IMG/VR virus record: IMGVR_UViG_3300006793_000023
Span: 7,621-71,620 of that record
Strand: one strand, 5' to 3'
Origin: a virus
Length of the DNA stretch: 64,000 nt
Part shown: positions 15,931 to 15,960 of the stretch, one piece after another
How the letters are laid out: every line of letters begins with the position of its first letter
Position numbering within the stretch: the stretch's first letter is position 1
Notes under the pieces: generated by a model
What the model was told of the DNA's origin: nothing
Database searches by the model: none
Seen by the model: only the letters and a program-made list of their open reading frames with translations
Program-made: the position numbers and the translations under genes

Positions 15931-15960
15931 AGTGTCGTAGCACCACTATAAAAACACAAG
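15931..15960 (+). ncRNA. preQ1-I riboswitch-like aptamer
   Basis: Stem AGTG/CACT, loop TCGTAGCAC, A-rich tail ATAAAAACACAAG; lies between the promoter and the ATG at 15962. Confidence 0.65.

Follow-up and report, generated by a model that had tools for sequence, protein, structure and literature searches.

The 64,000-nt stretch of DNA analyzed here (the window) comes from a marine, Flavobacterium-type phage and carries two copies of a very small hairpin followed by an A-rich tail. The original prediction read the first copy as a preQ1-I riboswitch-like element governing the synthesis of a DNA-modification base. The locus raises the question of whether such an element is a conserved RNA structure at all, which known riboswitch type it comes closest to, and what a virus would do with it in front of its 7-deazaguanine synthesis genes.

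Two copies of the element and their genomic context

The hairpin AGTG/CACT with an A-rich tail, said to span 15931-15960 ahead of an ATG at 15962, is present exactly as described: AGTG at 15931-15934, TCGTAGCAC at 15935-15943, CACT at 15944-15947 and ATAAAAACACAAG at 15948-15960, followed by a T and the ATG at 15962. The near-identical element announced upstream of folE was found as well; it reads TGTG-TCGTAGAAC-CACA at 19109-19125, continues with ATAAAAC to 19132 and precedes the folE ATG at 19145. The compensatory swap between the copies also held, the outermost stem pair being A-T in element 1 and T-A in element 2. The two copies are laid out as follows:

15931..15960, + strand: element 1, aptamer candidate (sequence reading; 47.2 bits, E 8.8e-7 with a covariance model built from the phage alignment)
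15931..15934 and 15944..15947, + strand: 5' and 3' strands of the predicted stem P1 of element 1
15935..15943, + strand: loop of element 1, UCGUAGCAC, with C15943 as the predicted ligand-pairing C
15948..15954, + strand: A-rich L3 of element 1, followed by the tail C15955 (predicted partner of G15940) and ACAAG
19109..19137, + strand: element 2 (sequence reading; 45.6 bits with the phage-alignment covariance model)
19109..19112 paired with 19122..19125, + strand: predicted stem P1 of element 2 (UGUG/CACA)
19113..19121, + strand: loop of element 2, UCGUAGAAC
19126..19131, + strand: L3 of element 2, followed by the tail C19132

The 22-mer GTGTCGTAGNACCACNATAAAA common to both elements occurs twice in the window and in none of 100 dinucleotide-preserving shuffles; matches to just the 9-nt loop, at up to one mismatch, are no more frequent there than expected (4 against 4.15). 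Across the 64 kb, the phage-alignment covariance model detected only elements 1 and 2 (47.2 and 45.6 bits), the next best site scoring 15.7 bits. The folding energies of both window copies were not better than those of shuffled sequences (z +0.22 and +0.99), and minimum-free-energy folding is uninformative for a hairpin this short. The minimum-free-energy fold of element 1 (15932-15957) differs from the P1 hairpin, pairing GUGU with the tail ACAC and GUAG with CUAU at -3 kcal/mol; the stems of the proteobacterial copies described below are incompatible with this alternative fold.

The surrounding genes include those of a 7-deazaguanine pathway, together with a small ORF and a formyltransferase-domain gene:

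11938..12726, + strand: queC, a pathway gene with no element in front (Pfam QueC, 1.1e-36)
15962..16204, + strand: 80-aa ORF, first behind element 1 (conserved ...PDPKLHQ.ISFIKSAIR... motif, hydrophobic C-terminal part, EELV end)
16214..16678, + strand: queD, 6-carboxytetrahydropterin synthase type (Pfam PTPS, 1.1e-15; PHROG QueD-like, 1.8e-38)
16659..17525, + strand: queE, radical SAM 7-carboxy-7-deazaguanine synthase type (PHROG QueE-like, 3.7e-47; Pfam Radical_SAM 24.9 bits, under its 29.5 cut-off)
19145..19858, + strand: folE, GTP cyclohydrolase I, the first pathway enzyme (Pfam GTP_cyclohydroI, 8.4e-42)
21703..22242, + strand: formyltransferase-domain gene (Pfam Formyl_trans_N, 1.6e-12)
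23344..23931, + strand: queF-like gene, preQ0 to preQ1 (Pfam QueF, 50.5 bits, over the cut-off; within a 306-aa open frame)

Element 1 had been assigned to a queD/queE operon. This needs a correction, since the ATG at 15962 opens the 80-aa ORF and not queD; the remainder of the assignment stands, as queD (16214) and queE (16659) follow. The 80-aa ORF gave no match in Pfam or in PHROGs, and its product is, from its sequence features, a conserved predicted membrane protein. Related phages encode PDPKLHQ proteins of 67-107 aa with a variable N-terminus, the motif PDPKLHQ.ISF(I/L)KS.IR, a hydrophobic stretch and a C-terminal EELV (loci L006:1597-1830, L017:1786-1989, L044:403-726 and many others), and in most of them this gene is the first one behind the queD-type element.

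The coordinates of the queF-like gene were converted from G000:C1:30964-31551; because the phage encodes QueF, it can make preQ1. Among named phages, the closest relative is Flavobacterium phage vB_FspM_immuto, with 85% identity confined to queC. A DpdN formyltransferase has been proposed for immuto, whose DNA carries formyl-dPreQ1, according to the available part of the preprint (bioRxiv 10.1101/2023.04.13.536721), and the formyltransferase-domain gene at 21703..22242 is a candidate counterpart of that protein. In the window, folE is flanked by a phosphoribosyltransferase-domain gene and a MazG-like pyrophosphohydrolase gene (18666-19082, 19846-20550); immuto likewise has a phosphoribosyltransferase gene before folE. 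In the record, whose completeness is 44%, the Pfam TGT model detected no DpdA; a DpdA3 may have diverged too far for this model or lie off the contig. Between queC and the next ORF, positions 12905-13017 match the Rfam tRNA model (41.8 bits) with a 52-nt insertion at the anticodon region, and ARAGORN calls no tRNA there; this may be an intron-bearing or decayed tRNA gene.

Promoter-like sequences were located ahead of both elements:

15887..15915, + strand: TTGCCT-17-TATATT ahead of element 1 (9/12 consensus matches)
19072..19099, + strand: TGGATA-16-TATATT ahead of element 2 (hexamer pair search)

The promoter originally placed at 15886-15915 is thereby recovered as a hexamer pair at 15887-15915, and its TATATT hexamer is kept in relatives, but the number of promoter-like sites in the element region is not above that in shuffles. 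A TATATT-like hexamer lies 3-20 nt 5' of the stem in 89 of 92 distinct upstream 60-mers from related phages, against 55% of mononucleotide shuffles. Ahead of the elements of related phages (L006-L085, L181-L318), the arrangement (A)GTTG, about 17-20 nt, (C)TTATATT(A) recurs, and it may represent the promoter type of this phage group. If used, the site at 15887-15915 would put the transcript start a few nucleotides 5' of the stem. No terminator was found between either element and its AUG, the sole terminator-like site in 15700-19300 being inside the 80-aa ORF. Metatranscriptome contigs from four runs cover parts of queD, queE and folE at 90-99% likeness, and one contig from run X17 joins a TGAG-type element to folE and extends 94 nt further upstream. 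Starts and strands cannot be read from these contigs and the libraries possibly contain DNA; therefore no transcription start was taken from them, and they are not counted as evidence.

Conservation in related phages and in marine Proteobacteria

Conservation upstream of Que genes in related phages, on which the original prediction had been staked, was observed. FolE relatives were taken from 80 viral loci (71-97% identity), and the element lies within 80 nt of folE in 56 of these, with a second copy more than 300 nt upstream in 31; the folE copy is absent in the other 24. Phage immuto (L005 25100-25340) keeps the folE copy, with a GGAG/CUCC stem, and has no element before queD, where a different 49-aa ORF and only the promoter-like motif are present.

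An alignment of 44 distinct phage copies was built from 45 regex matches, with one dropped (L048:4421, within the folE coding region, with 3/4 pairs and no proper tail). The regex demanded the loop motif, at least 3/4 pairs and an A-run, so that the paired fraction arises partly by selection; unselected upstream sequences of the FolE-related loci show the same stems. P1 is paired in 99.4% of cells across the 44 copies, and both partners vary in three of its four pairs: pair 1 is AU in 20 copies, UA in 14 and GC in 9, pair 2 is GC in 43 and AU in 1, and pair 3 is UA in 27 and AU in 17. The closing G-C pair is present in 44 of 44. The covariation score of P1 was 0.575 compared with 0.134 in shuffled alignments, with none of 500 shuffles scoring as high and slid registers reaching at most 0.186. 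Invariant across the alignment are U1, G3, A5, G6, A8 and C9 of the loop and the first C of the 3' stem, with A, C or U at loop position 7. The dinucleotide AC ahead of the P1 3' strand is present in all 44 aligned copies and in all loop variants among 110 distinct copies.

In this larger set, P1 measures 4 bp in 110 of 110 copies, and the proteobacterial sequences add C-G at pairs 1 and 2. L3 is 5-9 nt long (7 nt in 96 of the 110) and is followed by C, with AAA invariant. The loop G and the tail C are able to pair in all 110 and never vary; P2 covariation cannot show because this one clear pair is invariant. Loop position 4 and the nucleotide three after the tail C were considered as a further pair: where position 4 is U (106 copies), the latter is A or G in 84, which is unremarkable in an A-rich sequence, and the 4 copies that have a purine in this loop position gave no sign of compensation.

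When viral contigs were scanned with a sequence pattern, at least 138 matches were obtained. Among those listed, 132 have the full 4-bp stem, and the next ORF is FolE-like in 60, a PDPKLHQ protein in 51, QueD-like in 3, QueE-like in 3 and unclassified in 15, the last group including ORFs ended by the edge of the locus; representatives were checked by Pfam. Six listed matches have no full stem, and one of these precedes folE.

The same pattern was scanned over one genome per species for 185,579 species, yielding 95 matches, of which 52 have a stem of at least 4 bp and 43 have none. Nearly all of the stemmed matches (49/52) have CCUG/CAGG as stem, with UCGUAGCAC as loop and U(U/A)AAAAACAC as tail, and without exception these 49 lie ahead of a QueC-like (34) or QueD-like (15) ORF; Pfam searches on representative downstream ORFs returned QueC at 1e-60 and PTPS at 5e-32. 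The stemless matches serve as an internal control, and 0/43 adjoin a QueC- or QueD-like gene. The CCUG/CAGG copies come from Thalassospira, Leucothrix, Vibrio, Marinomonas, Thaumasiovibrio and related MAGs (e.g., L087, L149, L126, L106, L142). The remaining three stemmed matches comprise two on a phage contig binned into a MAG and one that appears random. The former two (L136 and L137) sit on one 5.9-kb contig under a Verrucomicrobiales MAG, which bears both phage-type elements with the small ORF and folE behind them and resembles a piece of phage DNA that ended up in a bacterial MAG. None of the Flavobacteriaceae genomes in the species scan has the stemmed pattern. The phage-alignment model likewise gave no match in two or in 151 Flavobacteriaceae genomes, a weak negative obtained with stricter filters on the best 48 candidates per genome, with positive controls reaching only E 0.1-0.5.

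The bacterial leaders also differ in what follows the element. Two Vibrio queD leaders have a terminator-like hairpin and a U-run straight after the tail, and in the queC leaders of Thalassospira and Leucothrix the aptamer lies 8-25 nt from the AUG. With a terminator in the former and proximity to the AUG in the latter, the aptamer therefore behaves as a module attached to different expression platforms. It is typical of riboswitches for a single sensor to serve two kinds of platform. In queD leaders of Vibrio and Marinomonas (L126:1498-1560, L148 minus strand ~1523-1470, L106, L152), the aptamer is followed by a terminator-like hairpin, then by GUGCUGC, which is complementary (with one G-U) to GUAGCAC of the aptamer, and then by a hairpin enclosing an AGGA ribosome-binding site; this arrangement looks like a full expression platform.

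Relation to the known preQ1-I types

The check suggested with the original prediction, a cmsearch with the Rfam PreQ1 class I model (RF00522; gathering threshold 39 bits), came back empty. Even with the cut-off relaxed to E<=10, stretches of 151 and 41 nt around element 1, the immuto copy and the Thalassospira copy gave no match, nor did element 2, and the elements of 12 bacterial and viral loci gave no PreQ1 match at E<=10. An all-family Rfam scan of the window at gathering thresholds returned only the tRNA-like match and neither preQ1-I nor preQ1-II; the immuto record, with its folE copy, was likewise negative for RF01054 (preQ1-II) at E<=1. Over the whole phage record, RF00522 hit nothing at the elements and four weak sites elsewhere, the best of which (12.7 bits) is A-rich, with a 3-bp stem and a 1-nt loop, and mostly matches the tail of the model. 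Over five proteobacterial genomes, with the best 150 candidates per genome scored, only weak matches elsewhere were found.

This failure is less damning because the printed consensus of RF00522 is type I, with a 5-bp stem and the loop UUCG...UC. When RF00522 was run on 151 Bacillota genomes, 12 places were detected at E<=0.001 (L320-L331); seven of the eight UC-type matches exceeded 39 bits, and none of the four AC-type matches did, these scoring 29.7-37.5 bits. In the reciprocal comparison, the phage-alignment model re-found 4 of 10 canonical aptamer sites, at only 10-14.5 bits and amid equal noise. The Rfam PreQ1 model is blind to the 4-bp-stem form and remained under its cut-off on all four type-II-like aptamers tested; therefore genome annotations probably undercount preQ1 riboswitches.

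According to the part of PMC11625349 drawn on here, type I has UU after the P1 5' strand and UC before the 3' strand and binds two ligands; type II has AC before the P1 3' strand, with C as the specificity base, and an A-rich tail with a conserved C, the named aptamers being those of Thermoanaerobacter tengcongensis and Bacillus subtilis; and type III combines UU with AC, a pyrimidine-rich stem-loop and a Watson-Crick-paired AAGG Shine-Dalgarno. The E. coli riboswitch is given as an example of type III in the corresponding part of PMC10622847. With UC following the 5' strand and AC preceding the 3' strand, the phage element conforms to type II. It shares with that type the G-C-closed hairpin, the loop UCG.AG...AC abutting the P1 3' strand, the A-rich tail with a conserved C thereafter, the location in leaders of queuosine/7-deazaguanine synthesis genes and the use of both terminator-type and AUG-proximal platforms. 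The Bacillota type-II-like aptamers (L324, L325, L327, L328) have a 5-bp stem with a closing G-C, the loop UCGCAG-(2-4 nt)-AC and a tail ending in AAAAACAAGG; this tail is A-rich, with C and then AAGGAGG behind it. The phage loop is UCGUAG-(1 nt)-AC.

The differences from type II are likewise clear. P1 of the phage and proteobacterial copies has 4 bp instead of 5, L2 has 1 nt instead of 2-4, and loop position 4 is U instead of C; L3 is mostly 7 nt, the whole aptamer measures about 25-30 nt, and the phage copies have no AAGGAGG tail. The shorter L3, compared with the 5-bp-stem examples, would be explained by a tail that has one pair less of stem to span. RF00522 gives the type-II-like examples 29.7-37.5 bits, whereas the phage element does not match. 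With type I the element has in common the H-type layout of a short stem and an A-rich tail and the same gene association; however, type I has UU...UC where the phage element has UC...AC, and all eight UC-type matches have 5-bp stems and 11-13-nt loops. With type III, as far as the cited part of its description extends, it shares AC at the specificity position and small size, but has no UU motif, pyrimidine-rich stem-loop or paired AAGG. The proteobacterial queC/queD leaders agree with the phage element in the 4-bp stem length, the loop UCGUAGCAC, the tail and the pathway, and differ in the CCUG/CAGG stem, in hosts that use Shine-Dalgarno sequences and in the terminator and further hairpins added in queD leaders.

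The covarying G-C-closed P1, the A-rich L3 with its C, the AC dinucleotide and the position in leaders of 7-deazaguanine genes (phage folE, queD, queE and the small ORF heading queD-queE; proteobacterial queC and queD) are all features of preQ1-I. Judged by comparative sequence analysis, the element is a genuine RNA motif, conserved and structured, that is specifically associated with genes of 7-deazaguanine synthesis. The most fitting classification is as a compact form of preQ1-I type II riboswitch, with a predicted role in regulating synthesis of the phage DNA-modification base. The central claim that it is a preQ1-I riboswitch is partly supported, by the conserved motif, the type II hallmarks and the queC/queD leaders of Proteobacteria; it gains nothing from RF00522, which has no match.

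Whether these sequences amount to a subtype of their own is a more doubtful matter. We tentatively suggest, as a possibility that we would not yet bet on, a fourth, minimal preQ1-I subtype (4-bp P1, 1-nt L2, about 25-30 nt) common to marine Proteobacteria and Flavobacterium-type phages, which in the phages would be free of a Shine-Dalgarno sequence and would fold the A-rich leader that Bacteroidetes ribosomes need unstructured. If this proposal is true, the subtype would be smaller than the type-II-like Bacillota aptamers compared here, and one missed by Rfam.

Proposed function, competing explanations and significance

The element probably functions as a preQ1-sensing translational OFF switch; we infer the ligand, the pseudoknot, the direction of the response and the translational level. 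Transcription would begin a few nucleotides 5' of the stem, giving very short mRNA leaders, and the phage FolE-QueD-QueE-QueC-QueF pathway would make preQ1. As the free base accumulates, preQ1 (and possibly also preQ0) would pair with C15943 or C19121, located just before the P1 3' strand, and stack on the invariant closing G-C pair. The A-rich tail would then dock along the 4-bp stem, and pairing of C15955 and C19132 with G15940 and G19118 would close an H-type pseudoknot occupying about -14 to -5 before the AUG. The mRNAs of Bacteroidetes do without Shine-Dalgarno sequences, and mRNA structure tunes translation initiation in these bacteria, according to the part of PMC6847099 used here; therefore folding of the leader would be expected to lower translation of orf80-queD-queE and of folE. 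In this way, the end product would feed back on the supply of the base that takes the place of G in phage DNA.

The invariant loop and the conserved tail could also have been shaped by other demands. The original prediction suggested that the 4-bp stem might reflect altered ligand specificity, that is, the same riboswitch fold tuned to another 7-deazaguanine such as preQ0, CDG or the formylated base of immuto. The stem one pair shorter and the single-nucleotide L2, compared with type-II-like aptamers, would fit such a change, as would the formyltransferase-domain protein in the window and the formyl-dPreQ1 reported for immuto DNA in the available part of its preprint (bioRxiv 10.1101/2023.04.13.536721); moreover, folE, queD and queE act before preQ0, so any later intermediate could signal. 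However, 49 proteobacterial genomes have exactly the loop UCGUAGCAC and tail UUAAAAACAC seen in the queD-type phage element, none of these genomes is known to formylate anything, the specificity AC and the closing G-C pair are unchanged, and free preQ1 is a plausible product of a phage with QueF. A different ligand is unlikely in our estimation, and the identity of loop and tail to those of proteobacterial queC/queD leaders disfavors the idea that the short stem signals one.

A protein-binding operator that only resembles a preQ1 aptamer, recognized for example by a translational repressor or by a factor in RNA processing or stability, would account for the small size of the hairpin, its ordinary thermodynamic stability and the failure of Rfam to recognize it; a protein site would also give invariant loop bases, and P2 is without covariation support. 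Yet the same loop and tail are found in Flavobacterium-type phages and in alpha- and gammaproteobacteria, always at 7-deazaguanine synthesis genes, joined to a terminator in two Vibrio leaders and abutting the AUG elsewhere, no shared candidate binding protein was noticed in passing, and the positions that never vary are those by which type II aptamers are defined, which makes such an operator quite improbable. Less credible still is a non-sensing leader or promoter-proximal sequence, such as an initial transcribed sequence or an mRNA 5' stabilizer inherited with the cassette. The element does lie only about 10-15 nt behind a conserved promoter-like motif, and many phage copies come from close relatives, so that their conservation is partly shared ancestry; but compensatory stem changes beside an invariant loop, the presence of four gene types downstream (folE, the small ORF, queD and queE), the occurrence in unrelated bacteria behind different promoters and the absence from every other promoter of the window all speak against it. 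A preQ1-sensing switch remains the reading that we prefer.

The statement that a phage riboswitch of this kind was not known to have been described agrees with our literature search, in which no paper on such an element in a phage was found; the published type II alignments (McCown et al. 2014) may already include the proteobacterial copies. The word "riboswitch" is absent from Hutinet et al. 2019, from the 2016 RNA Biology review and from the available part of the immuto paper (bioRxiv 10.1101/2023.04.13.536721), and in the note on phage Seurat it occurs only in a reference title. Streptococcus phage Dp-1 was considered as a precedent and rejected: no riboswitch is annotated in its first 20 kb, which hold the que operon, and neither RF00522 nor RF01054 has a match in the record.

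A very small aptamer of this kind is attractive for structural work and as a compact genetic switch. If the proposed function is true, the riboswitch would govern a viral DNA-hypermodification pathway instead of tRNA queuosine, and would offer a natural case of riboswitch control of translation in Bacteroidetes, where the usual occlusion of a Shine-Dalgarno sequence cannot apply. The virus would then be using a metabolite-sensing RNA to keep production of its guanine-replacing DNA base in balance, which would place regulation within anti-restriction DNA modification.
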